From a virus (taxonomy: Duplodnaviria; Heunggongvirae; Uroviricota; Caudoviricetes), in IMG/VR virus record IMGVR_UViG_2565956729_000008, positions 1 through 20,419 of that record: a stretch of DNA of 20,419 nucleotides; one strand, 5' to 3'. Both the position numbers and the translations under genes were made by a program. Position 1 is the stretch's first letter; every line of letters begins with the position of its first letter. Positions 4,453-20,419 of this stretch are shown piece by piece. Under the pieces are notes generated by a model. That model did no database searches, had not been told where the DNA came from, and saw nothing but the letters and a program-made list of their open reading frames with translations.

Positions 4453-5601
4453 ATGACCTGGCCATCTGTCACGATTGAACAGTACAACACGTTCAGTAGC
4501 TCGCCGGACGGCGTGGAAAATACGCTGCTGTTTGTGGGCAATGCACAAAACAACAAAGGTAAGGTTCTGCCGGTCAATGCCAACAGTGATCTGGATGAAT
4601 TGCTGGGAACGAACGCCAGCCCGCTGAAGAATTTCCTTCAGTCAGCACTGACCAATGCCGGACAGAATGCCTTTTTCTATGTTGCCGTTCTGCCGGAAGC
4701 AGGCAGGGGCAAAGAAGCGACGCCAGCCTGCCAGGCATGGCAGAACGCCGTACTGGCGGCTCAGGAAACTGTTTCAGTTGAAGGCGTGGTGATCACCGAG
4801 CCGGTCAGCACGAAGGATGATATCAACGCCATACAGGCGTTACGTCAGACCATCATCAATAAATATCAGCGCCGCATCTGGTTCATCCTGACCATCGCCG
4901 CCAACAACCACAGCAAAACCTGGGCGGAATACGTTGCCGAACTGACCGCACTACAGAAAGGCATTGCAGCCCCGCAGGTCATGCTGGTTCCGGAGATTTT
5001 TGGATTTGAACCGGGCGTTCTTGCTGGTCGCCTGTGTAACAGCGCCGTCACCATTGCTGACAGTCCGGCACGTGTGGCAACCGGGGCGCTGTCCGCACTG
5101 AAAACCACAGAGCGCCCGAAGGACAGCGCGGGACAGGCAATTGATCTCGCCACCCTGCAGGCGCTGGCAACCGCCCGCTACAGCGTGCCCATGTGGTATG
5201 CCGACTATGACGGCCTTTACTGGGCCGACGGCGTGACACTTGAGGTGGAAGGCGGGGACTACAACGTCATCGAACATGTCCGCATTGCTGATAAGGTGGC
5301 GCGCCGCGTACGGCTGATGGCCATCCCCAAAATTGCCGATCGCTCACTGAACAGCACACCGGGCAGCATTGCCGCACATGAAACGCTGTTTGCCCGCCCG
5401 CTGCGTACCATGGCGAAATCCACGCAGATTAACGGTGTCACCTTTCCGGGCGAAGTGAAATCGCCACAAAAAGGCGATGTGGCCATCACCTGGCAGGACG
5501 AAAAGACGGTCAGCATCAGCATTGTTGTCCGCCCTTACGCCTGCCCCAAAACCATCAAAGTGGGCATTCAGCTGGACAAATCTCTGGAGGAGAACGCATG
5601 A
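4453..5601 (+). CDS. Putative contractile tail sheath protein (not the P2 FI family)
   Basis: ATG at 4453 is preceded by AGGAG with 7-nt spacing; the track start at 4321 is an upstream in-frame extension overlapping the previous gene. 382 aa, immediately before a ~150-aa tube-like gene and upstream of chaperone and tape measure, the canonical sheath position. No recognisable similarity to P2 FI. Confidence 0.5.
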   Translation: MTWPSVTIEQYNTFSSSPDGVENTLLFVGNAQNNKGKVLPVNANSDLDELLGTNASPLKNFLQSALTNAGQNAFFYVAVLPEAGRGKEATPACQAWQNAVLAAQETVSVEGVVITEPVSTKDDINAIQALRQTIINKYQRRIWFILTIAANNHSKTWAEYVAELTALQKGIAAPQVMLVPEIFGFEPGVLAGRLCNSAVTIADSPARVATGALSALKTTERPKDSAGQAIDLATLQALATARYSVPMWYADYDGLYWADGVTLEVEGGDYNVIEHVRIADKVARRVRLMAIPKIADRSLNSTPGSIAAHETLFARPLRTMAKSTQINGVTFPGEVKSPQKGDVAITWQDEKTVSISIVVRPYACPKTIKVGIQLDKSLEENA

Positions 5602-6053
5602 CAACCCGCATTAACGGCATGGCCTTTGATGTTTATGTTGGCGGAACGGATATCCGCGTAAAAAACATTTCGCTGGATATCAGCGACGAAAGCGCCGTGG
5701 CCAAAACCCGTGGCATCCCTGACGGCAAACTGCGCGGCCCTGTCAGTGCCGAAGGTGAAATCGAAATGAGTACCCGCAGCTTTAACCAGCTCGGGGAAGT
5801 GGCGGCTCAGGCGGGATCGTGGCGTGACCTGCCGCCAATGGATTTTGTGTTTTACGCCAACACGGGCACCGAAGAAATCCGCGTTGAAGCCTTCGGTTGC
5901 GAGCTGATGCTTTCGAACCTGTTAAGCATTGACACCGAGAGCGCGGATCTGACCACGCACAAAATCAAGTACGTGGTGGCAAGCCCTGACTTTGTGCGTA
6001 TCAACGGCGTGCCCGTTCTCTCAGAGAACGACGTGCGCGGGCTGATGGGGTAA
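5598..6053 (+). CDS. Putative tail tube protein
   Basis: 151-aa ORF, start overlapping the sheath stop (ATGA), GGAGGAG upstream. Size and position typical of myovirus tube proteins. Confidence 0.5.
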   Translation: MTTRINGMAFDVYVGGTDIRVKNISLDISDESAVAKTRGIPDGKLRGPVSAEGEIEMSTRSFNQLGEVAAQAGSWRDLPPMDFVFYANTGTEEIRVEAFGCELMLSNLLSIDTESADLTTHKIKYVVASPDFVRINGVPVLSENDVRGLMG

Positions 6054-6056
6054 ACC

Positions 6057-6353
6057 ATGCAGGAGCATGAACGCACCATCATCACCCTGGGCATTCTGGG
6101 CGGAATCGCTGCCGCAAGTCGGGTGCTGGCTGGCGCAGAACCGATTACGTTGCGGTTGTTTGTGGGCCGAACCCTGCTGGGGAGCGCGCTGGGTGTTTCT
6201 GCCGCCGCCCTGCTGGTTCGCTACCCGAACCTTGACCCACTGGCCATTGCCGGCGCAGGTACCGCAATGGGCGTTGCCGGTTACCAGATTGTGGAAATCT
6301 TCCTGCGCCACATGCGCCGGAAGCTGGACGAAAAAGAGAACAAAGAGGAGTAA
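6057..6353 (+). CDS. Y: Holin, P2 GpY-like
   Basis: 98-aa protein with hydrophobic transmembrane segments and a highly charged C-terminal tail (RRKLDEKENKEE). The stretch VLAGAEPITLRLFVGRTLLG and GYQIVEI resemble the P2 Y holin as I recall it. Lies directly upstream of the endolysin. Confidence 0.75.
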   Translation: MQEHERTIITLGILGGIAAASRVLAGAEPITLRLFVGRTLLGSALGVSAAALLVRYPNLDPLAIAGAGTAMGVAGYQIVEIFLRHMRRKLDEKENKEE

Positions 6354-6358
6354 CCGCA

Positions 6359-6466
6359 ATGCAGTCCCGCAGGGATCAGAAAGCCGCTGCCATTGTCTGG
6401 AAAATTATCCGGGCGTTGTGGCGCTGGTTGCGTAAACCTCAACAACCCCGTAAGGAGCAAAAATGA
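6359..6466 (+). CDS. Small basic amphipathic peptide (35 aa), possible lysis accessory
   Basis: ATG at 6359 through TGA at 6464-6466, translating to MQSRRDQKAAAIVWKIIRALWRWLRKPQQPRKEQK. Its stop overlaps the endolysin start (ATGA). Below the ORF-track size cut-off. Coding status unproven. Confidence 0.25.
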   Translation: MQSRRDQKAAAIVWKIIRALWRWLRKPQQPRKEQK

Positions 6467-6804
6467 AACTCTCCGATAAGCAACAACAATTTACCGTCAT
6501 GATCGGAAAACTCATCCAGTTTGCCCATCAGCGCGGTTATGGCCTGACGTTCGGTGAGGCGTACCGCACGCCAGAGCAGGCAAAACTCAACGCACAAAAG
6601 GGATCAGGCATCACCAACAGTCTGCACTGCCAGCGACTGGCGGTGGATTTTAATCTGTTTATTAACGGTGAATACCAGACCCGCACAGAGGCTTACCGCG
6701 AACTGGGCGAGTACTGGGAATCCCTCGGCGGCACATGGGGCGGTCGTTTTAAAAACCGCCCGGATGGCAATCATTTCAGCCTTGAGCACGACGGTGTGCG
6801 CTGA
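6463..6804 (+). CDS. Endolysin, peptidase M15 / LAS-type zinc metallopeptidase
   Basis: 113 aa with an H-x6-D motif (HCQRLAVD) and a downstream His pair (NHFSLEHD), matching the zinc-binding triad of M15-family cell-wall peptidases. AAGGAG ribosome-binding site upstream. Sits next to the holin. Confidence 0.85.
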   Translation: MKLSDKQQQFTVMIGKLIQFAHQRGYGLTFGEAYRTPEQAKLNAQKGSGITNSLHCQRLAVDFNLFINGEYQTRTEAYRELGEYWESLGGTWGGRFKNRPDGNHFSLEHDGVR

Positions 6805-6810
6805 TTTTAC

Positions 6811-6842
6811 GCTTAATAAGCCTTCCTGCAGGCTTATTAAGC
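6811..6842 (+). terminator. Perfect 12-bp stem / 8-nt loop hairpin after the lysis genes (weak terminator or attenuator)
   Basis: GCTTAATAAGCC-TTCCTGCA-GGCTTATTAAGC, followed by the T-rich stretch CCTCTTATTCTT. It begins 7 bp after the endolysin stop. The T-tract is imperfect, so termination is probably partial. Confidence 0.35.
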
Positions 6843-6868
6843 CCTCTTATTCTTGACATTAACAGGAC

Positions 6869-7162
6869 ATGATGATGAACGATAAAAACACCCAAACCAC
6901 CGCAGAGAACGCCATCACTTTACAGGTCGGCGAGCATGAACTGACGTTTATCCCGACGGTGAAAGACTACAACGACCTGCAGAACGACTTCATGCCGGAC
7001 AATAAAATTGCACCGCTGAAAAACTACCTGCGCCGCATCGTGATTAAAGAGCACCGCGATCTGCTGAACCAGTTGCTGGAAAAACCGGGAATGCCGGCCA
7101 GTCTGGCAACTGCCGTGAATAACGAGTTTGTGCCGGAAGTGGAAATCACCGTAAAAAAATAA
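6869..7162 (+). CDS. Tail assembly chaperone, short form (E/G-like)
   Basis: 97-aa acidic protein immediately upstream of the tape measure. Three consecutive ATGs at 6869-6877 with AGGA at 6864-6867, so the true start is probably 6872 or 6875. Ends GTA AAA AAA TAA. Confidence 0.6.
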   Translation: MMMNDKNTQTTAENAITLQVGEHELTFIPTVKDYNDLQNDFMPDNKIAPLKNYLRRIVIKEHRDLLNQLLEKPGMPASLATAVNNEFVPEVEITVKK

Positions 7163-7350
7163 AAAGCCATCTGAGGGCCATTGATCGCAATGACCTTACC
7201 AGGATGCTGATCCTGCGCCGCCACTGGCTGCCCGGTGAAGATGATTCACCACAGTCACTGGCTGCTGCCGTCTGGCTGGATAACCACTACTGGGAAAATA
7301 TGGGTATCGCCGTCAATAACGGCATTATCCGCGCCTTTAAGGGAACGTAA
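6869..7350 (+). CDS. Tail assembly chaperone, long form via programmed -1 frameshift (E+E'-like)
   Basis: Slippery heptamer A AAA AAA at 7153-7159 sits directly before the zero-frame stop. The -1 frame from 7159 is open for 62 codons (IKSHLRAIDRND...IIRAFKGT) with no ATG, and its TAA at 7348-7350 overlaps the tape-measure ATG at 7350. I checked the frame codon by codon. Confidence 0.55.
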
Positions 7351-9446
7351 TGTCACAACAGCGCCTTGAATTACTTCTTGAACTGACAGACCGCCTGACA
7401 AGGCCGTTACGCGCAGCCGGGCGACAGGTTCAGGGATTTGCTGCAACAAGTCGGGGAGCTTTTCGGGACATTGCTACCGGAGGCGCTGCGCTCTGGGGAG
7501 TGGGTGCAGCCATTCAGGGCGCACTGATGCCAGCCATTGAAATGGACAGGGCGCTCGGTGAGGTGAAATCACTGGGCGTCGCAGAGTCCGGACTGCGTAA
7601 ACTCAGCCGCGCCGCCGTTGATTTCACTATGGAATACGGCGGAGCTGCGCAGGATTTTGTGCGTGCTTCTTACGACATCCAGTCAGCCATTGCCGGGTTA
7701 ACTGACGATGAGCTGTCCCGCTTCACCACCGCATCAGCAACAGTGGCAGCAGCAACCAAATCCAGCAGCCAGACCATTACCGCCTACATGGGCACCATGT
7801 ACGGCATATTTAAAGACCAGGCTGATGCCATGGGAAAAAGTAAATGGGTGGAGCAGATCGCCGGACAAACCGCCACTGCCGTGCAAATGTTTAAAACAAC
7901 CGGCGATAACATGTCAGCGGCATTCACCACACTGGGTGCCAGCGCAAAAGCAGCCGGTATTGATGCGGCCGAGCAGTTCGCCGTACTGGGGCAACTGCAG
8001 GCAACCATGAGTGGCAGCGAGGCTGGTACAAAATATAAATCCTTCCTGGCATCCGTTGGTAAAGCACAGAAAAAGCTGGGGCTTAATTTCGTGAATAAAG
8101 ACGGCACGATGAAAAGTGTTGTCGAGATCATGAAACTTATCAGGGGCAAATTTGGTGATCTGTCAAAAGTGGCTGACTCTGATTTGCTGAAAAGCGCTTT
8201 TGGCTCCGATGAGGCTGTGGCCATGATTAAATTGCTCAATGCAGACATTGGCGGACTGGAAAAGAACATCGCCACGCTGGGCAATATCAAAGGTATGGAT
8301 AAGGCTGTCGAAATGGCACAAGCCATGGCCGATCCGTGGGAACAGGCCGCTGCGATTATTAACGGCATTCGCATTGAAATTGGCACACAACTGTTACCCG
8401 TTCTGTATCCATTCATCCAGAAAAGCAACGAAGGCGGTAAATCCTTTGTTGCCTGGTTGCGTCTGTATCCAAACATCACACGTGCAATCGGCTTATTAAG
8501 CGCGGCACTTATTGGTGTTGCGGCGGTTGGCGCAACGGTCAATATCGTAATGGGGGTGGCGAAATTTATCTGGGTGGGATTACGCATGGTCTGGATGGCC
8601 GCAATCGCACCACTGAAATTAATCATCTTTCTGTATCGTGCCCTGAAAGTGGTTATGCTGGCGTTCTGTGCTACTGCCCGCATGGTCAGGGCATTATATC
8701 TGGCGATGAGTATCGCCATGGGGGCGCACAATGTCAGGGCCAAAATTCAGATTGCACTGCTGAAACTGCAACGCATCGGTATGTGGCTTTATTCTGCCGC
8801 ACTGGGCGCTGCAGCTGTGGCCATGAAAATTTATACCGCTGTTACCGGTGGCGCAGCCGTTGCCACTCAGCTACTTTTCAGCCCGATAACGTTAATCATC
8901 CTGGCACTGGCTGCGCTGGGCGTGGGCATTTATTTTCTGATTACCCGCTGGGATGAGATCAAAGCGGCACTGATGGATACAGCCGCTTTTCAGTGGGTAA
9001 CCAGTGTCATAAAAAATATAGCTGTATGGTTCGGCAATACCTGGAAAGGCATTAAAAGCGGCTGGGATGCCGTTATTAATTATTTTTCCACCCGCTCACC
9101 GCTGGAAATATTTCAGGATTATGTCCGTCTGATTAATAAATTATTTTCAGGACTATGGCGCACAATTATCGGTATGTTCAGCTCAGCATTCAGATGGATT
9201 GCTGACAAGCTGAATATGCTCCCGGGTATAAATATTGATGTACCAGAAATTACAGATAACAGTGAGGGTTCTGTATTAACCGGTGGAAAAGTTATTAGCG
9301 CCGGGCCAGGTGGCATTGCGGCAAAAATGCAAAATAACAGCGACAGCCAGACCACAATTGATAACTCCCGTCGCGTGGTCAATGTCAATGTGCAGGATGC
9401 ATCCCCGGCCCACCTTAATGAATGGATGGAGCTGCATGCATACTGA
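7350..9446 (+). CDS. Tail tape measure protein
   Basis: 698 aa, Ala/Gly-rich and helical in the N-terminal half, with several long hydrophobic segments in the C-terminal half. Positioned directly after the frameshifted chaperone. Confidence 0.85.
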   Translation: MSQQRLELLLELTDRLTRPLRAAGRQVQGFAATSRGAFRDIATGGAALWGVGAAIQGALMPAIEMDRALGEVKSLGVAESGLRKLSRAAVDFTMEYGGAAQDFVRASYDIQSAIAGLTDDELSRFTTASATVAAATKSSSQTITAYMGTMYGIFKDQADAMGKSKWVEQIAGQTATAVQMFKTTGDNMSAAFTTLGASAKAAGIDAAEQFAVLGQLQATMSGSEAGTKYKSFLASVGKAQKKLGLNFVNKDGTMKSVVEIMKLIRGKFGDLSKVADSDLLKSAFGSDEAVAMIKLLNADIGGLEKNIATLGNIKGMDKAVEMAQAMADPWEQAAAIINGIRIEIGTQLLPVLYPFIQKSNEGGKSFVAWLRLYPNITRAIGLLSAALIGVAAVGATVNIVMGVAKFIWVGLRMVWMAAIAPLKLIIFLYRALKVVMLAFCATARMVRALYLAMSIAMGAHNVRAKIQIALLKLQRIGMWLYSAALGAAAVAMKIYTAVTGGAAVATQLLFSPITLIILALAALGVGIYFLITRWDEIKAALMDTAAFQWVTSVIKNIAVWFGNTWKGIKSGWDAVINYFSTRSPLEIFQDYVRLINKLFSGLWRTIIGMFSSAFRWIADKLNMLPGINIDVPEITDNSEGSVLTGGKVISAGPGGIAAKMQNNSDSQTTIDNSRRVVNVNVQDASPAHLNEWMELHAY

Positions 9447-10963: not shown

Positions 10964-11595
10964 ATATTCCGGAGATGCCCGAATTCCCTCTCCCAACCTG
11001 GATGAACAAGGGAGAGCCATTAACACTGGCACATTCTTCACATCGTTACTGGGAGAAGGTCTACAGCTGGCTGACATGGCCACTACAGCAAATTGATGTT
11101 GATACCTGCGCAGAGCCTCTGCTTAACCTGCTGGCCTATCAGCGCAACATCACCCGCTTCAGTGGGGAGCCAGTTTCATTATTTCGCTTAAGGGTAAAAC
11201 ACGCGTTTATCAACGCTCAGGACTCGGGCGAACGTGCCGGCTTCGAACGCATCTTTAAGCGTCTTGGCGTGGGAGAGGTAAAAACCCTGGAACGACAGTT
11301 GCAGCATGACTGGGACGTTATTTTACTGCGCATCAATGACACCCAGTTAAGCGAAAACAATGCCCTGATGATGCAGCTCGTGCGCCAGTATGGCCGTACC
11401 TGCAGGCGCTATTTCTTTCAGGTAATCAATACAACCACTGCCCGGCTGACAGCCGGCACATTTGATGGCCATTACAGGTATCACACAGCAGAAGCAACGG
11501 TGAGAAAGGACACCATCTGGTTAACCGCTTCGCTACAGGCAGGACATTACGGCCTGTCCGTGGAGCATTACACATTACAGGCAGACGAAGCATGA
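10960..11595 (+). CDS. Putative baseplate/tail protein I-like
   Basis: 211 aa from the ATG at 10960, overlapping the J stop (ATGA); the track start at 10810 is an upstream extension. Loose pattern similarity to P2 GpI and the canonical position between J and the fiber gene. Confidence 0.45.
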   Translation: MNIPEMPEFPLPTWMNKGEPLTLAHSSHRYWEKVYSWLTWPLQQIDVDTCAEPLLNLLAYQRNITRFSGEPVSLFRLRVKHAFINAQDSGERAGFERIFKRLGVGEVKTLERQLQHDWDVILLRINDTQLSENNALMMQLVRQYGRTCRRYFFQVINTTTARLTAGTFDGHYRYHTAEATVRKDTIWLTASLQAGHYGLSVEHYTLQADEA

Positions 11596-13460
11596 GCACG
11601 ATTATTACTGAACAGTACGAACACTGGTGTGCGAATCAGCTCATCAGTGGAAAACCTGCGCGCCCGGATACATTTGTTTTTGCATATATTCCGGGACAGG
11701 ATGAATCCGCAGAGATCCCCCGCGATGAGATACTCCCTGATGAATCCATGATTCAGTATCGTGCGCCGGTCACCCAGTACGGCCTCCTGTCGCCGAACGC
11801 GACCGCGTTTTCCATCATTCTGGACACGACAGTCGGCGACTTCGAATACAACTGGATCGGTCTGCTGAACGAAGAAAGCGGCGTGCTCTGCATGATTGCA
11901 CACACACCTCGTCAGCAAAAAATTAAAACAGCGAACGGCGTACAGGGAAACAACCTGATCCGCACATTTTCCATGGAGTTTGACGGCGCAGCCGCAGCAA
12001 TGCATATCGATGTCAGTGCTGATGTCTGGCAGATTGATTTCACTGCACGCCTTGCAGGAATGGATGAGGCCCGCCGGCTGCTGGCGTTTGATCACTACGG
12101 TGAAGCCGCTTTTCTGGGGGATGGTTTTCAGGTCAGCTATCAGGATGGTACCGCTACTGTTGCCGCCGGCGTGGGTTATGTGGGAGGTCTGCGCGTCAGT
12201 CTGCGCGAACCTTACAGCCTGCCGGCTGCGGTCGGGGATACCATTTGGATTGATGCAAGCTGGCAGGGATTTGTTACCGGCGAATGGAATACCGTTTTTA
12301 CGTTCTGCGCCCGCCAGGAACATGCGTCCTATACAGACGGTAACGGCTTCCGACACTTTGTCGCGCCACTTGCGAAACTGACATCAGAAGGCTTACAGGA
12401 TTTACGTCCACAGACGCCCGATGAAGAACAAAGCAATGCACTGGCAGAGCACGAAAAATCCCGCCGTCATCCGGACGCAACACTGAAGGAGAAAGGCTTT
12501 GCGCAGTACAGCAACTCCACCGACAGCGACGCAGAAGACCGCGCCGCCACATCAAAGGCAGTAAAAGCCGCAATGGATAAGGCAAAAGGCGCTGTTGAGC
12601 GTGACGGCGACACCATGACCGGGGAACTGAAAATCCGTGGTGTTAATGCGCTGAGGATTTTCAACGAAGCCTTTGGTCTGATTTTTCGTCGTTCGGAAGA
12701 GTGCCTGCACCTTATCCCTACCAGTGAAGGTCAGGGCGAGAATGGCGATATTGGTCCACTTCGACCGTTCACTATTAATCTGCGGACGGGTGAAATATCC
12801 ATGTCGCATAAAGTGTCTGTTGGCGGCGGTTCTCAGGTCAATGGTGCGCTGGGTATCGGCGTTCAGAACGCGCTGGGCGGAAACTCAATTGCTTTCGGGG
12901 ATAACGATACAGGTATAAAACAAAACGGCGACGGCATTCTGGATGTTTATGCGAATGGACAGCATGTATTTCGTTTCCAGAATGGTGTGGCAATAGCGTT
13001 AAAAAATATTCAGGCCGGAAATGCTAAAAAATTCACGTTATCCAGCGACAACAACTCCACGAAAAACGCAACGTTTAATTTATGGGGTAATTCATCCCGA
13101 CCTGTAGTTGCAGAGCTTGGTGATGATTCCGGCTGGCATTTTTACAGCCAGAGAAATACCGATGGCAGTATCACATTCGCTGTAAACGGACAGATGACCC
13201 CATCAAACTATGGAAATTTCGATGCCCGTTATCAGCAGCGAAATGGCGGCGTGCAGGATGTGCGTTATGGTTCCGAAATGTATTACAACCCGGGAGGTAA
13301 CCAGGTATCCTGGACATTTCGCTCACCTTCAGGCCACGGGTTATCCGGTATTAATGTGCAGGAAACCGGAAGTAATTCGGCAGATAACATCGGCGGCGTG
13401 TATTACCGTCCGCTTCAGAAACTGATTAATGGCACCTGGTATAACGTGGCGAGTGTTTAA
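11592..13460 (+). CDS. Tail fiber protein with a P2 GpH-like C-terminal receptor-binding region
   Basis: 622 aa. AEHEKSRRHPDATLKEKGF and the C-terminal ~200 aa (NALGGNSIAFGDNDTGIKQNGDGILDVYANGQHVFRFQNGVAIALKNIQAG ... LINGTWYNVASV) closely match the P2 GpH C-terminus as I recall it. The N-terminal ~150 aa is of a different type from the P2 H N-terminus. Confidence 0.9.
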   Translation: MSTIITEQYEHWCANQLISGKPARPDTFVFAYIPGQDESAEIPRDEILPDESMIQYRAPVTQYGLLSPNATAFSIILDTTVGDFEYNWIGLLNEESGVLCMIAHTPRQQKIKTANGVQGNNLIRTFSMEFDGAAAAMHIDVSADVWQIDFTARLAGMDEARRLLAFDHYGEAAFLGDGFQVSYQDGTATVAAGVGYVGGLRVSLREPYSLPAAVGDTIWIDASWQGFVTGEWNTVFTFCARQEHASYTDGNGFRHFVAPLAKLTSEGLQDLRPQTPDEEQSNALAEHEKSRRHPDATLKEKGFAQYSNSTDSDAEDRAATSKAVKAAMDKAKGAVERDGDTMTGELKIRGVNALRIFNEAFGLIFRRSEECLHLIPTSEGQGENGDIGPLRPFTINLRTGEISMSHKVSVGGGSQVNGALGIGVQNALGGNSIAFGDNDTGIKQNGDGILDVYANGQHVFRFQNGVAIALKNIQAGNAKKFTLSSDNNSTKNATFNLWGNSSRPVVAELGDDSGWHFYSQRNTDGSITFAVNGQMTPSNYGNFDARYQQRNGGVQDVRYGSEMYYNPGGNQVSWTFRSPSGHGLSGINVQETGSNSADNIGGVYYRPLQKLINGTWYNVASV

Positions 13461-13462
13461 CA

Positions 13463-14020
13463 ATGTTACATTTAAAAAATATTACTGCGGGTAATCCGAA
13501 AACCGCGGAACAATATCAGCTGACAAAACAATATGGTGTCACCTGGCTTTTTTCGGAAGACGGCAAAAACTGGTATGAAGAACAGAAGAACTTTGCCAGT
13601 GACACAATAAAAATGGTTTACTCCGGGGACGGGCGCGTGGTGTGGGTCGGTAAGGATGTGACAGGCATTGAACCCCGTAACGCCAGTGTTATTGAAGTTC
13701 CGGATATTACCGCTAATCGCCGTATTACCGCGCCTGGTTACTGGTTTTACCGCGATGGCAATTTTATCTTCGACTACAAACTTAAAGCGGAAGATGAGCG
13801 TGATGCACTGTTAAAACAGGCCAGTATCATGACCAGCGAATGGGAAAAAGACCTGCTGCTGGGATTAATCAGCGACGAAGACAGGGAAAAACTGAAAGCC
13901 TGCCGTATTTATACAAAAACGTTACGGGAGATGACATTCAGCCAGGTTACAGATAAAGCATCGTATGCCACAATTGTATGGCCGGAATTACCGCAGGATA
14001 TTAACGAGAATAAAAAATAA
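13463..14020 (+). CDS. Tail fiber assembly chaperone (GpG/Tfa family)
   Basis: 185 aa immediately downstream of the fiber gene. The C-terminal motif VWPELP matches the conserved WP..P ending of Tfa chaperones. Confidence 0.8.
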   Translation: MLHLKNITAGNPKTAEQYQLTKQYGVTWLFSEDGKNWYEEQKNFASDTIKMVYSGDGRVVWVGKDVTGIEPRNASVIEVPDITANRRITAPGYWFYRDGNFIFDYKLKAEDERDALLKQASIMTSEWEKDLLLGLISDEDREKLKACRIYTKTLREMTFSQVTDKASYATIVWPELPQDINENKK

Positions 14021-16548
14021 TGAGCGCGCTGTTGACGAAAGCATTTGAGAAATGGGTTGCTGAATGTGCCGCCAGTAATTTACCGGCGCGACCTGACTCC
14101 ATTGTTTTTGCACTGATGGAAAGGGAACCATCCAGAAATGATGAAGTTGTCCCTCCTGAAAAAATCACACACACGGTAAATAATCTGCGCTATGGAAAAC
14201 TGGATCCAAACAGCATTGTCTGTAGTGCCGTTGTTGCTGATAACGAGACATTCACTTACGACTGGATTTGCCTGGTCCATCAACCCAGCAACACACTCTG
14301 CGGCGTAATTAAAACCCCGGTTCGTCACAAACTGACCGGCGAAACACTTATCCGCAATTTTGCTGTTATTTATAGCGGACTGGCTCAGGCTGCACACATT
14401 ACTGTTCCTCCTGAAAGCTGGCAAACAGACATCTCGCAGGAGCTGAAAACAATTCAGGGTTTTATCAGCGATCACATAGCAGTATCAACCCGTTATGCGG
14501 TTACCGAAGCTAATAAGCAGTTTTTGTCCATGCAGATAACCCACGGGCGTTATTCAGGGATCTGGCGCTATCTTAATTCAACCGGGGGTATTAACTGGTA
14601 TTTTTTGTTTCTTGCAATGTATGAAAGCGAAGGTAAAGCCTTTTCTCTCAGGGACAGACTCGTTATTTGTGAAAAAGCCTTTCGTCTCGGTATAACAGCG
14701 CCATTCATGACGAATTTCCGCTATGAAGCCGGACAGCATGTGATGATTAACAGCACGCTATTTTTTGTAAATATCGCCGGCATTACTGGAGAAACCACAC
14801 CTGATATCAGTAGCATCTTACAAGGTGAGTTTATTTATACAGGTTCCGCTGTTCTTGAATGTCTCGGGAAGACCAGTAAAGAGATCCCGTCATCATGGTC
14901 ATGGTTCTTTACCGATGTGGCCGCTGATTTATATTCACCGGTTGCCCCTGATTCTACAGACAGTTACCCATCCCTCTGGTTTGCCTGTATTGCTGAAATT
15001 GCAGACGCTTCGTGGTTACAGACCCCTTCAGGGCTCGGCAATCATTCCAGATGGGAAATTATCAGACTGGTAGCGGAAAATAATATTTTACGTCAGCTAA
15101 ATACTGACGCAAATCTGGTAAACGTCTTTCAGGGAAACGTTGCTCCCGGTAATACTCATTACGCGCAATGTTTTTGTCAGGATAATGCCGAAGTGTATGC
15201 CGGTTTACGGGCCCTGGTCTTTCTGGCCGGACTGGTTAATGACTCTGATGCTGCCTCGCAATATTCCAACGCAATGAAAACAATTAAAACAGGGTTGCTG
15301 GCATTATTTGTTCCGGGCCAGAACAGATTCAAGACGTATTACAATGAAGCTGATTACCCCGATACCCCGGGCGATGCGCGTTTTGTGCAAAAAGACCGAT
15401 TCTCTGTGGCTCCGTGGCGCTTTGGTGTGCTGAATACGCCTGCTGAACAGGCACAATATGGACTATCCGTTCTGGATGCCATCCAGAAAGATTATCCCGA
15501 TTTATTTACATCGGATTACGCAGGCATTGATACTTTCGCCATGAGCGACTTTTTTGCATTCGTGGCAAAAGTTACAGCCTCACAGACCGCCGCAACAACA
15601 GCTCTCCGTCGTCTGCAGATCAGAAAAACTGCCGCCGTAACAATTTCAGATATTGCATCAGCAATGTCAGTTTCAGCATGGGGATCAGTCCCCTGCATGA
15701 GTACACGCGACTTTATACGAATTAATGGTCGCTCCGTTGTTGGAGATGAAGATATTGTCTTTCCGGAAAGAGAAATCCGGCACATTACCCCCGTCAATAA
15801 CGCCCAGGTGGTTGTGGATAACCTCAACAATGACACCGTATTGTTTATTGATAATGACTCTGCACTTTCATATCTCCAGTTCAAAATAGCGCCGGGGCTG
15901 GTTGATGGTTGCCGCCTGTCAATCACACCGAAAAGGGACGTGACGAGAACATCATTTCTTACGCAGGATGCGCAGGTTTCAGATGCTCCGGAAGCGTTAT
16001 TTGCAGGGAAAAACGTTACATTTACGTACAATGCAACAACGCAAACATGGCACAGAAACTTTGTACCTGCAGTTTCTTCTGCTGCTACAAATTTATTGAA
16101 AAAACAATCAGAATCTCTGTTTGTTGATGGCGCTCACCCGATCATCCCCAAAATGCTTGTAAGCACCCTGAACTCCAGTCTGGATTCATTTAAAAGCCTG
16201 CCCGATGGTTCGCGTGTTTATACCCTGAAGCTGGATGTATCAAACCCCGTCGGGCAATCCTCAGTTGGCGGCATCGGAATCGCTGTTTCAGCGCAGATTG
16301 AGCCGCGTTATCTCTATCAGAACCAGAACCGACAGTACATTCCAGCGCAGTATTTTGTCAGCTCTGTCTCTGCAAATGCGCGAACAATCACTATCGGAAT
16401 ACAGGTGGTGATGCCTGATAAACCTTACTATGCACTGGATATGTCAACACTGGAAGAAATTGCCGGCGCAGATAATGGGTTGCTCCCCTGTGTTGTGGTT
16501 ATAAAAACACTTGCAGGGACAACGTTGCGTCAGAACGGAATGGGATAA
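14020..16548 (+). CDS. Second tail fiber / receptor-binding protein candidate
   Basis: 842 aa, start overlapping the Tfa stop (TAATGA). Residues 1-140 align with the N-terminus of the fiber at 11592 (shared E.W.A, PARPD..VFA, Y.WI.L, S..LC, TP, LIR.F, AA.HI.V, WQ.D). The remainder is unrelated: a helix-rich central region and a beta-rich Ser/Thr/Asn-rich C-terminus. Confidence 0.55.
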   Translation: MSALLTKAFEKWVAECAASNLPARPDSIVFALMEREPSRNDEVVPPEKITHTVNNLRYGKLDPNSIVCSAVVADNETFTYDWICLVHQPSNTLCGVIKTPVRHKLTGETLIRNFAVIYSGLAQAAHITVPPESWQTDISQELKTIQGFISDHIAVSTRYAVTEANKQFLSMQITHGRYSGIWRYLNSTGGINWYFLFLAMYESEGKAFSLRDRLVICEKAFRLGITAPFMTNFRYEAGQHVMINSTLFFVNIAGITGETTPDISSILQGEFIYTGSAVLECLGKTSKEIPSSWSWFFTDVAADLYSPVAPDSTDSYPSLWFACIAEIADASWLQTPSGLGNHSRWEIIRLVAENNILRQLNTDANLVNVFQGNVAPGNTHYAQCFCQDNAEVYAGLRALVFLAGLVNDSDAASQYSNAMKTIKTGLLALFVPGQNRFKTYYNEADYPDTPGDARFVQKDRFSVAPWRFGVLNTPAEQAQYGLSVLDAIQKDYPDLFTSDYAGIDTFAMSDFFAFVAKVTASQTAATTALRRLQIRKTAAVTISDIASAMSVSAWGSVPCMSTRDFIRINGRSVVGDEDIVFPEREIRHITPVNNAQVVVDNLNNDTVLFIDNDSALSYLQFKIAPGLVDGCRLSITPKRDVTRTSFLTQDAQVSDAPEALFAGKNVTFTYNATTQTWHRNFVPAVSSAATNLLKKQSESLFVDGAHPIIPKMLVSTLNSSLDSFKSLPDGSRVYTLKLDVSNPVGQSSVGGIGIAVSAQIEPRYLYQNQNRQYIPAQYFVSSVSANARTITIGIQVVMPDKPYYALDMSTLEEIAGADNGLLPCVVVIKTLAGTTLRQNGMG

Positions 16549-20258: not shown

Positions 20259-20372
20259 ATGAAAAAGGAGCAAGCGCTATGTCGCAAAAATCGCTTACGG
20301 CCATCACGTTCTGCGCGACGGTCATCCTTATCATCTGGATGTTGCACGGTTCGCTGTGTGAAATACGGATGA
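20259..20372 (+). CDS. Possible mok-like overlapping reading frame
   Basis: ATG at 20259 opens a 37-codon frame that overlaps the hok-like ORF in another frame and ends at TGA 20370-20372. Arrangement is reminiscent of mok/hok translational coupling. It is shorter than canonical mok. Confidence 0.25.
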   Translation: MKKEQALCRKNRLRPSRSARRSSLSSGCCTVRCVKYG

Positions 20373-20419
20373 GCTTCTGGGGTGCGGAGTTTGCGGCGTT
20401 CTTACAATGTAAACAGTAA
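20279..20419 (+). CDS. hok: Hok/Gef-family type I toxin (small membrane protein)
   Basis: 46-aa ORF, MSQKSLTAITFCATVILIIWMLHGSLCEIRMSFWGAEFAAFLQCKQ. Hydrophobic transmembrane N-terminus with C-A-T-V-I, then SLCEIR identical to the plasmid R1 Hok core, and an EVAAF-like EFAAF. GGAG ribosome-binding site 8 nt upstream. Absent from the ORF track because of its size. Confidence 0.8.
   Translation: MSQKSLTAITFCATVILIIWMLHGSLCEIRMSFWGAEFAAFLQCKQ

Follow-up and report, generated by a model that had tools for sequence, protein, structure and literature searches.

A 35-residue cationic peptide encoded in a spanin-less coliphage lysis cassette is a candidate disruptin

Spanins are not found in every phage of Gram-negative hosts: 91 of 677 such phages (~13%) have no recognizable spanin (PMC6139136). 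One alternative outer-membrane disruptor has experimental support in the literature, gp28 of phage phiKT, a 56-amino-acid (aa) peptide of charge +7 whose gene lies between the endolysin and holin genes of a phage without lipoprotein genes (10.1101/515445). gp28 is needed for Mg2+-resistant lysis and complements lambda Rz/Rz1 amber mutants; it binds membranes, mainly the outer membrane, and is bactericidal on par with LL-37 (10.1101/515445). Its discoverers, Holt et al., predicted that unrelated cationic peptides would be found in other spanin-less phages, and noted that finding them by sequence is hard, with candidates many and scattered (10.1101/515445). Here we describe such a candidate in a stretch of 20,419 nucleotides (nt) of viral DNA, positions 1-20,419 of IMG/VR record IMGVR_UViG_2565956729_000008, to which we refer in full as the window. 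The feature under study, at 6057-6804, is best explained as the complete lysis cassette of an HP1-like (Peduoviridae) temperate coliphage, made up of three coupled late genes. It comprises a holin gene, an endolysin gene and, between them, a small gene under selection whose product has the physicochemical character of an antimicrobial peptide; spanin genes are absent. This small gene, a conserved open reading frame (ORF) of 35 aa, is the likeliest answer to how the cassette copes without spanins.

A holin-endolysin cassette without spanins

The three genes of the cassette are as follows.

6057..6353, plus strand: holin of the P2 gpY family, 98 aa (PF04550 Phage_holin_3_2, E = 5.5e-28; phrog_175, holin)
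6359..6466, plus strand: 35-aa ORF, MQSRRDQKAAAIVWKIIRALWRWLRKPQQPRKEQK, cationic (+9), candidate outer-membrane disruptor (ORF signals, selection, helix prediction)
6463..6804, plus strand: endolysin, M15 zinc peptidase, 113 aa (PF13539 Peptidase_M15_4, E = 1.4e-11; phrog_1768/465/2649, endolysin)

The original prediction, made from the letters of the window, had called the first gene a P2 Y-type holin and the last a small M15 peptidase rather than an endolysin of the P2 K lysozyme type, and both assignments are borne out by the family matches. The holin and P2 gpY, also a PF04550 protein, share 43% identity over 81 aa (E = 3e-25), and the holin is 44% identical to that of phage ESSI2_ev239; its identity to the phiKT holin gp29, which likewise falls in PF04550, is 29% (E = 2e-11). 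Inspected by eye, it has three hydrophobic segments, followed by a charged C-terminal tail, so that it combines a known holin family with the transmembrane segments expected in a canonical lysis cassette. The endolysin aligns weakly with the solved L-Ala-D-Glu peptidases 8q2g and 2vo9, and its H55, D62 and H104 match their conserved H, D and H, the zinc ligands of the M15 family. The active site is thus predicted to be intact, and the enzyme probably cleaves the peptide stems of peptidoglycan at the L-Ala-D-Glu bond. By eye, no signal sequence, signal-arrest-release (SAR) domain or N-terminal hydrophobic segment was seen; the endolysin should therefore need the holin to exit the cytoplasm and is predicted to be holin-dependent.

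The endolysin is 78-81% identical to those of ESSI2_ev239 and Salmonella phage SI7. Relative to ESSI2_ev239, the M15 protein is 78% identical, but the tube protein only 52%, the holin 44% and the tail assembly chaperone 43%. The M15 gene is also the main stretch with detectable nucleotide similarity to the ESSI-2-like and SI7 phages, with a sharp mosaic boundary at the gene ends. It seems that this gene either was exchanged, with boundaries at the gene ends, or is far more constrained than its neighbors. Its spanin genes may have been deleted, or this copy of M15 may never have been linked to any.

The remaining component of a canonical lysis cassette, an i-spanin with a lipobox-containing o-spanin or a unimolecular spanin, was found neither in the window nor in a closely related complete prophage. 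An element 94% identical to the window is present in 41/5426 complete E. coli genomes, and its copy in strain ETEC4077 (locus L003) is a prophage of ~34.5 kb located between pheA and raiA. The window covers the late region only, and L003 served as the proxy in which the early region was inspected. Lipoboxes were sought from every start codon in all six frames of the window and of the whole of L003, with the ESSI2_ev239 o-spanin as a positive control, which was recovered; no plausible lipoprotein ORF was found in either. A tblastn search of the window, L003 and a further locus, L004, with 134 spanin-like ORFs taken from downstream of M15 in relatives returned no spanin match; the real matches were confined to the chaperone and a second reading frame within M15. 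Nor did PHROG scans reveal a spanin: the other genes of the window, and five L003 genes beyond it that are small or hypothetical, matched only head, tail or unrelated families. The claim that no Rz/Rz1-like pair or lipoprotein ORF lies nearby therefore stands, and spanins elsewhere in the prophage, the finding that had been named as able to overturn it, did not turn up in L003.

Two candidates within 6000-6900, the region singled out beforehand for lipobox ORFs and embedded Rz1-like frames, were rejected. The +1-frame ORF at 6067-6435 inside the holin gene contains the string LPQVGC but neither a basic N-region nor a hydrophobic core, and in L003 it is cut short at 86 aa. Within M15, the alternative-frame ORF at 6554-6856 lacks any hydrophobic region, and relatives keep it open only because of the M15 frame. 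The remaining lipobox hits in the window and L003 were antisense or off-frame within capsid, sheath, tape-measure or fiber genes.

The absence stands out against the relatives. One genome per bacterial species was scanned with the M15 protein as the anchor, which returned 78 loci, 72 of them with an M15 protein of at least 64% identity. In at least 63 of these 72 loci, an i-spanin gene overlapped by a lipobox o-spanin gene follows immediately after M15, and a few more were apparent on inspection. The i-spanin ORF is ~109-130 aa long (in a few cases up to 181 aa) with an N-terminal transmembrane segment, and the o-spanins give weak LysC/P2_Rz1 matches under each family's cutoff. By far most of the spanin-bearing relatives have the holin gene directly next to M15, its stop codon adjoining or overlapping the M15 start codon and leaving no intervening ORF. 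The window differs at both places: where the relatives have a spanin slot of ~490 nt, it has a hairpin-bearing spacer of 64 nt, and between holin and M15 it has 110 nt that carry the 35-aa ORF. We consider it confirmed that the absence of spanins is real and is anomalous relative to close relatives with the same endolysin.

An equivalent that escaped recognition, either a periplasm-spanning protein elsewhere in the prophage that is not a lipoprotein or spanins supplied in trans by other prophages, is a very improbable explanation. E. coli strains usually carry lambdoid prophages with Rz/Rz1, and the inspection of the early region through a proxy leaves some room for a gene elsewhere. Kongari et al. 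pointed out that their own searches would miss spanins with other topologies or anchors (PMC6139136). However, the lipobox scan, the spanin tblastn and the PHROG searches were all blank in both the window and L003, the other window genes are all assigned to the head or tail, and reliance on the late genes of another prophage would fail in lytic infection of a nonlysogen.

The small gene between holin and endolysin

The cassette had originally been read as two genes, which missed the third, a conserved cationic ORF between them. Its ATG lies 5 nt past the holin stop, with GAGGAG 8 nt upstream of it; its TGA overlaps the M15 ATG (ATGA), and its last codons hold the AAGGAG Shine-Dalgarno sequence of M15. 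These signals fit translational coupling to both the holin and M15 genes. The ORF is unannotated in the ETEC4077 RefSeq record, and exact copies appear as "hypothetical protein [Escherichia coli]" on >1000 contigs. It has no match at the Pfam gathering score and falls in no PHROG or NCBIfam family, and tblastn of the peptide against 50,697 phage records gave no match. A Pfam WRW match at E = 0.0068, well short of the gathering score, we regarded as fortuitous.

Contigs of the lineage (n = 32) were retrieved through the holin or M15 and not through the small ORF itself, and all 32 keep its start codon and amphipathic core; it is full length in 28, and two alleles carry in-frame deletions of 1 and 3 codons. 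Pairwise Nei-Gojobori dN/dS was 0.10-0.38 for the small ORF, compared with 0.03-0.07 for the holin, M15 and chaperone genes, and for the window versus L003 the small ORF gave a Fisher p of 0.0015. Synonymous divergence is itself unusual here: dS of the small ORF is 0.50-0.61 versus 0.14-0.24 for its neighbors in the same prophage pairs, 2-3 times higher. Local recombination, a different origin of the 110-nt segment or a mutational hotspot are possible reasons.

A HMMER scan for relatives, which covered 1.84 billion representatives, returned the family itself and one new distant relative, P0034 (39 aa), on contig L173; three long repetitive matches were considered spurious, given the tandem repeats of P0031 and the 12-14 matched stretches in all three. 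L173 has the same layout (tube, holin, small ORF, M15, chaperone) and no spanins, its peptide is 57% identical, and the C-terminal tail of its small ORF is replaced by another frame. Over the 22 core codons, the window and L173 differ by 11.7 changes at 14 synonymous sites, which is near saturation (pS = 0.83), versus 7.3 changes at 49 nonsynonymous sites (pN = 0.15); 17/22 residues are identical (Fisher p = 3e-7). The other two frames of the same alignment show no such bias.

L125/L133 (WP_305855007.1), likewise from E. coli, form a third sublineage, in which a 41-aa ORF of charge +9 occupies the same place, with GTGA and ATGA overlaps and again no spanins. The 41-aa and 35-aa peptides are 24% identical and share the motif AxxVWxhhRxL, with 67/5000 shuffles scoring as well; BLASTP between them gave no alignment, and a homologue search with the 41-aa type returned only itself. 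Since only this weak local motif supports homology, we call the 41-aa ORF a positional analogue and regard it as a possible homologue. The small ORF is thus confined to a spanin-less clade of three sublineages, the window type (with E. coli and E. albertii members), L173 and L125. From the conserved start and core, the dN/dS values and the bias in the core codons, we conclude that the 35-aa ORF is a genuine protein-coding gene under selection, with the core helix constrained and the ends not.

Net charge is +7 to +9 across all variants of the peptide. The 35-aa form has no lipobox according to the scan and, by eye, no Cys, transmembrane segment or signal sequence. AlphaFold2 gives a single helix at residues 5-24, with a mean pLDDT of 73 overall and 86 in the core. 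On a helical wheel, K8, K15, R18, R22, R25 and K26 fall within an arc of ~100 degrees, and Ile, Val, Leu, Trp and Ala fill the remainder. Over 18 residues, the hydrophobic moment of the window allele reaches 0.64, compared with 0.51-0.54 in the other alleles; among references, melittin, magainin and phiKT gp28 give 0.52-0.55 and LL-37 gives 0.78. The peptide therefore resembles LL-37, melittin and magainin in size (LL-37 has 37 aa), charge, a single amphipathic helix with a Trp/Arg-rich face and a hydrophobic moment in the same range. Unlike them, it is phage encoded and cytoplasmic, lacks a signal or propeptide and has no homology to them.

Possible roles of the peptide in lysis

By the criteria of Holt et al., a disruptin is a product of <80 aa with a charge of at least +4, a predicted amphipathic helix and no transmembrane segment, signal or lipobox (10.1101/515445). 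The peptide has 35 aa, a charge of +9, a hydrophobic moment of 0.64 and none of the excluded features, and its gene belongs to the lysis cassette of a phage that infects a Gram-negative host and in which no lipoprotein or spanin gene was found. We propose that it may perform the outer-membrane step of lysis as a functional analogue of gp28, a reading to which we lean while giving it a little less than an even chance. Holin of the P2 Y type would build up in the inner membrane and open holes at a programmed time, and the cytoplasmic M15 peptidase would then cross these holes and cut the peptide stems of peptidoglycan; these two steps follow from the family assignments of holin and endolysin. 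The third step we infer in its entirety: the cationic peptide would bind membranes and lipopolysaccharide (LPS) and weaken the outer membrane, which would rupture once the wall is gone, so that the peptide would stand in for spanins as gp28 does. More tentatively still, the 35-aa ORF may found a second, sequence-unrelated family of phage disruptins that took over as this clade lost its LysB/LysC-type spanins.

Several observations weigh against this proposal. The peptide and gp28 give no BLASTP alignment, and their Smith-Waterman score was equaled by 2190/5000 shuffles; homology to gp28 was not found, so the peptide could be at most a functional analogue and not a member of the same family. 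At 35 aa, it is also shorter than gp28 (56 aa). It evolves much faster than its neighbors, with identities between sublineages of 57% and 24% versus 71-95%, and 4/32 alleles have late stops, three at codon 34 and one at codon 28, all of which spare the helix. The link between presence of the peptide and absence of spanins appears to rest on one ancestral event, because the junction of M15, hairpin and chaperone is homologous in all three sublineages, which makes it an anecdote and not a statistic. Contig L032 (1037-1997) has an HP1-like segment of tube, holin, M15 and chaperone genes in which neither spanins nor a small ORF occur and the spacer is AT-rich and 60 nt long. Here spanins were lost independently and without the peptide, and therefore spanin loss can occur without such a replacement, albeit in a fragment of uncertain viability. 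Finally, a peptide that acts on membranes might just as well work at the inner membrane and affect holin timing.

L032 itself is an unrelated 2.8-kb contig of a metagenome-assembled genome (JAVBKE010000038.1) binned as 'Bacillales', with Photorhabdus/Xenorhabdus-like flanking genes; it is clearly of an Enterobacterales phage type and was probably misbinned.

Divergence and late stops would also suit a reading that we consider rather unlikely, in which the loss of spanins is tolerated or lysis is decaying, the small ORF serves mainly to couple translation of M15 or has a role unrelated to lysis, and the likeness to antimicrobial peptides is incidental. The unusually high dS, the C-terminal tail that L173 took from another frame and the placement of the M15 Shine-Dalgarno sequence in the C-terminal codons agree with it. 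However, dN/dS would then be near 1, and instead the core shows the excess of synonymous over nonsynonymous change described above; charge and amphipathicity are kept in all three types, and the truncations leave the helix intact. Decay also sits poorly with the rest of the prophage, which looks intact, none of the annotated genes of L003 carrying a pseudogene flag, and which is as widespread as the genome and contig counts given above.

Action at the inner membrane is a stronger contender, even though we think it unlikely. The peptide would be an accessory of holin triggering, timing or endolysin release, and turgor, shear or low divalent cations would burst the cells. The small ORF directly follows the holin gene and is translationally coupled to it, and L032 offers a spanin-less cassette that has no peptide of any kind. 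Helices that are cationic and amphipathic bind to the inner leaflet of the cytoplasmic membrane, which is acidic, and the spherical cells of lambda spanin mutants still lyse in shaken culture without added Mg2+. In these mutants, fragile spheres accumulate, which millimolar Mg2+ stabilizes (10.1101/515445). Two small factors of lysis that were found recently, the releasin of Mu and Lcc6 of LambdaSo, work at the level of holin or endolysin (PMC9239132). On the other hand, known antiholins and releasins are membrane anchored or are holin isoforms, whereas the 35-aa peptide has, by eye, no transmembrane segment. It also has no signal sequence by eye and no match to a lysis-regulator family in Pfam, PHROGs or NCBIfam, although its sequence is compatible with a peripheral role at the inner membrane. 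Moreover, ~67 relatives that have spanins, a homologous holin and an endolysin of ~80% identity manage with no such accessory, and the appearance of a new regulator in exactly the spanin-less clade would therefore be a coincidence.

Disruptin-like action is the reading that we favor, and comparative genomics here yields a single well-placed candidate, located in the cassette, under purifying selection and found in exactly the clade that is without the spanins of its relatives. If the proposal is true, the disruptin solution arose more than once and also in temperate myoviruses, and the clade would present a natural swap of spanins for a peptide, since sister phages of this host species have spanins alongside an endolysin of ~80% identity; in evolution, spanin and peptide solutions would then be interchangeable. 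Further gains would be a very short peptide of 35 residues, amenable to genetics, for studying breakage of the outer membrane from within, and a better annotation for an ORF that is now unannotated or "hypothetical" in thousands of E. coli assemblies. If the proposal is refuted, the clade would be a good system for asking how a phage lyses its host without an outer-membrane function.

The surrounding prophage and comparison with known cassettes

The window is the late region of a P2/HP1-like prophage, with every gene on the plus strand. The head genes come in the order scaffold, major capsid, small terminase, adaptor, terminator and completion protein; downstream lie sheath, tube, the lysis region, the chaperone with a DUF6890 extension, tape measure, baseplate and fiber genes. 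The features that flank the cassette are as follows.

4453-5601, plus strand: sheath (DUF2586)
5598..6053, plus strand: tail tube gene, 151 aa, upstream boundary of the cassette, its stop separated from the holin start by a 3-nt gap (PF10772 Phage_HP1_Orf24, E = 1.7e-50; phrog_1182, tail protein)
6811..6842, plus strand: 13-bp perfect hairpin, then CCTCTTATTCTT, terminator- or attenuator-like, in the spanin-gene slot of the relatives (terminator-like site prediction)
6869..7162, plus strand: tail assembly chaperone, 97 aa, downstream boundary of the cassette (PF10963 Phage_TAC_10, E = 2.7e-25)
7204..7350, plus strand: DUF6890 ORF (PF21830, E = 1.3e-23)
7350-9446, plus strand: tape measure

The order of sheath, tube, lysis genes, chaperone and tape measure, with P2-type head genes upstream, is that of an HP1-like Peduoviridae late operon. 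The original prediction had placed the lysis pair between tube and chaperone instead of after the head genes and thought this unusual. The location is correct; the unusualness is not, as the arrangement is canonical in HP1 and in all HP1-like Peduoviridae examined, and the order tube-lysis-chaperone is common to the ESSI-2-like phages (ESSI2_ev239), Salmonella phage SI7, Yersinia phage vB_YenM_324 and Aeromonas phage P05B. P2 puts its lysis genes after the head genes, and the arrangement therefore looked odd from a P2 viewpoint. Lysis genes embedded in the tail operon are known biology.

L003 carries integrase, replication, portal and terminase genes. A tailocin or a domesticated cassette in the style of a type 10 secretion system was ruled out by the capsid, scaffold, terminase, portal and integrase genes, which make this a whole phage. 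The phage collection holds no isolated phage of this lineage; the query region is covered to only 25% by the best phage matches, and every isolate has a chaperone of <50% identity. Activity of the prophage is therefore presumed only.

The hairpin has a predicted free energy of -21.1 kcal/mol (z = -4.1) and a pyrimidine-rich tail. L125 (2277-2308) retains it by way of two compensatory changes of base pairs, one from T-A to G-C and one from A-T to T-A, and the M15-chaperone spacer of L173 retains it with a single G-U pair. Possible roles are those of an intrinsic terminator or attenuator that splits the late operon or of an element that stabilizes the mRNA. No sigma-70-like promoter was found in 5500-7500, and an Rfam scan of the window gave nothing at the gathering score.

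The chaperone gene ends in GTA AAA AAA TAA, with a slippery A AAA AAA at 7150-7156, and the -1 frame is open over 7123-7350, through the DUF6890 ORF. The latter is probably a -1 frameshift extension of the chaperone and not a separate gene as annotated in RefSeq; the arrangement resembles the conserved programmed frameshifts of P2 E/E' and lambda G/GT. Further downstream, two consecutive fiber-like genes at 11592-16548 encode proteins of 622 aa and 842 aa, with a tail-fiber assembly gene between them. Both proteins match phrog_13714/13388/8239 at residues 1 to ~150 and so have similar N termini, which suggests that a receptor-binding module has been duplicated or has an alternative version. 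Past the tail genes, the end of the prophage carries a small toxin ORF of the Hok/Gef type (46 aa, 20279-20419, to the end of the window). Its homologue in L003 (34207-34347) matches phrog_251 (MokW-like host killing), and a TM2-domain gene and a Com/DNA-methyltransferase pair come next there. Rfam gave no hok/sok RNA at the gathering score.

Among described cassettes, that of phiKT, gp27 (endolysin)-gp28 (disruptin)-gp29 (holin), is one of the closest. Both lack spanins and lipoproteins, both have a small cationic peptide gene between holin and endolysin, and both peptides have a predicted amphipathic helix, no signal or transmembrane segment by eye and similar charges (+7 for gp28, +7 to +9 here); both holins belong to PF04550. 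The two differ in that the peptides are dissimilar and of different length (35 versus 56 aa), the gene order is reversed (holin-peptide-endolysin here), the endolysin is an M15 peptidase and not a T4-type lysozyme (PF00959), and the phage is a temperate HP1-like myovirus and not a virulent podovirus. The function of gp28 has been shown by experiment, whereas that of the 35-aa peptide is deduced.

The Peduoviridae of the ESSI-2-like, Evevirus, Irrigatiovirus (SI7) and Tresduoquattuorvirus (YenM_324) groups share the position of the cassette, the P2 Y-family holin (44%) and the M15 endolysin (78-81%). In contrast to the window, their holin abuts M15, and M15 precedes an i-spanin (109-130 aa) and an o-spanin lipoprotein that overlaps it. 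Haemophilus phage HP1 has the same late-operon order, with sheath (orf23), tube (orf24), hol, lys, an Rz-like orf25, orf26 and tape measure; however, its holin is unrelated (PF16080), its endolysin is a lysozyme (PF00959) and an Rz-like spanin is present. Phage P2 has the homologous holin (43% identity), but its Y-K-lysA-lysB-lysC genes follow the head genes L and X and include lysA and the overlapped LysB/LysC spanins; the annotation of its endolysin K in the record reads only 'endolysin'. What is new in the cassette described here, compared with these systems, is a holin-endolysin pair accompanied by a putative disruptin, not homologous to gp28, in place of spanins.

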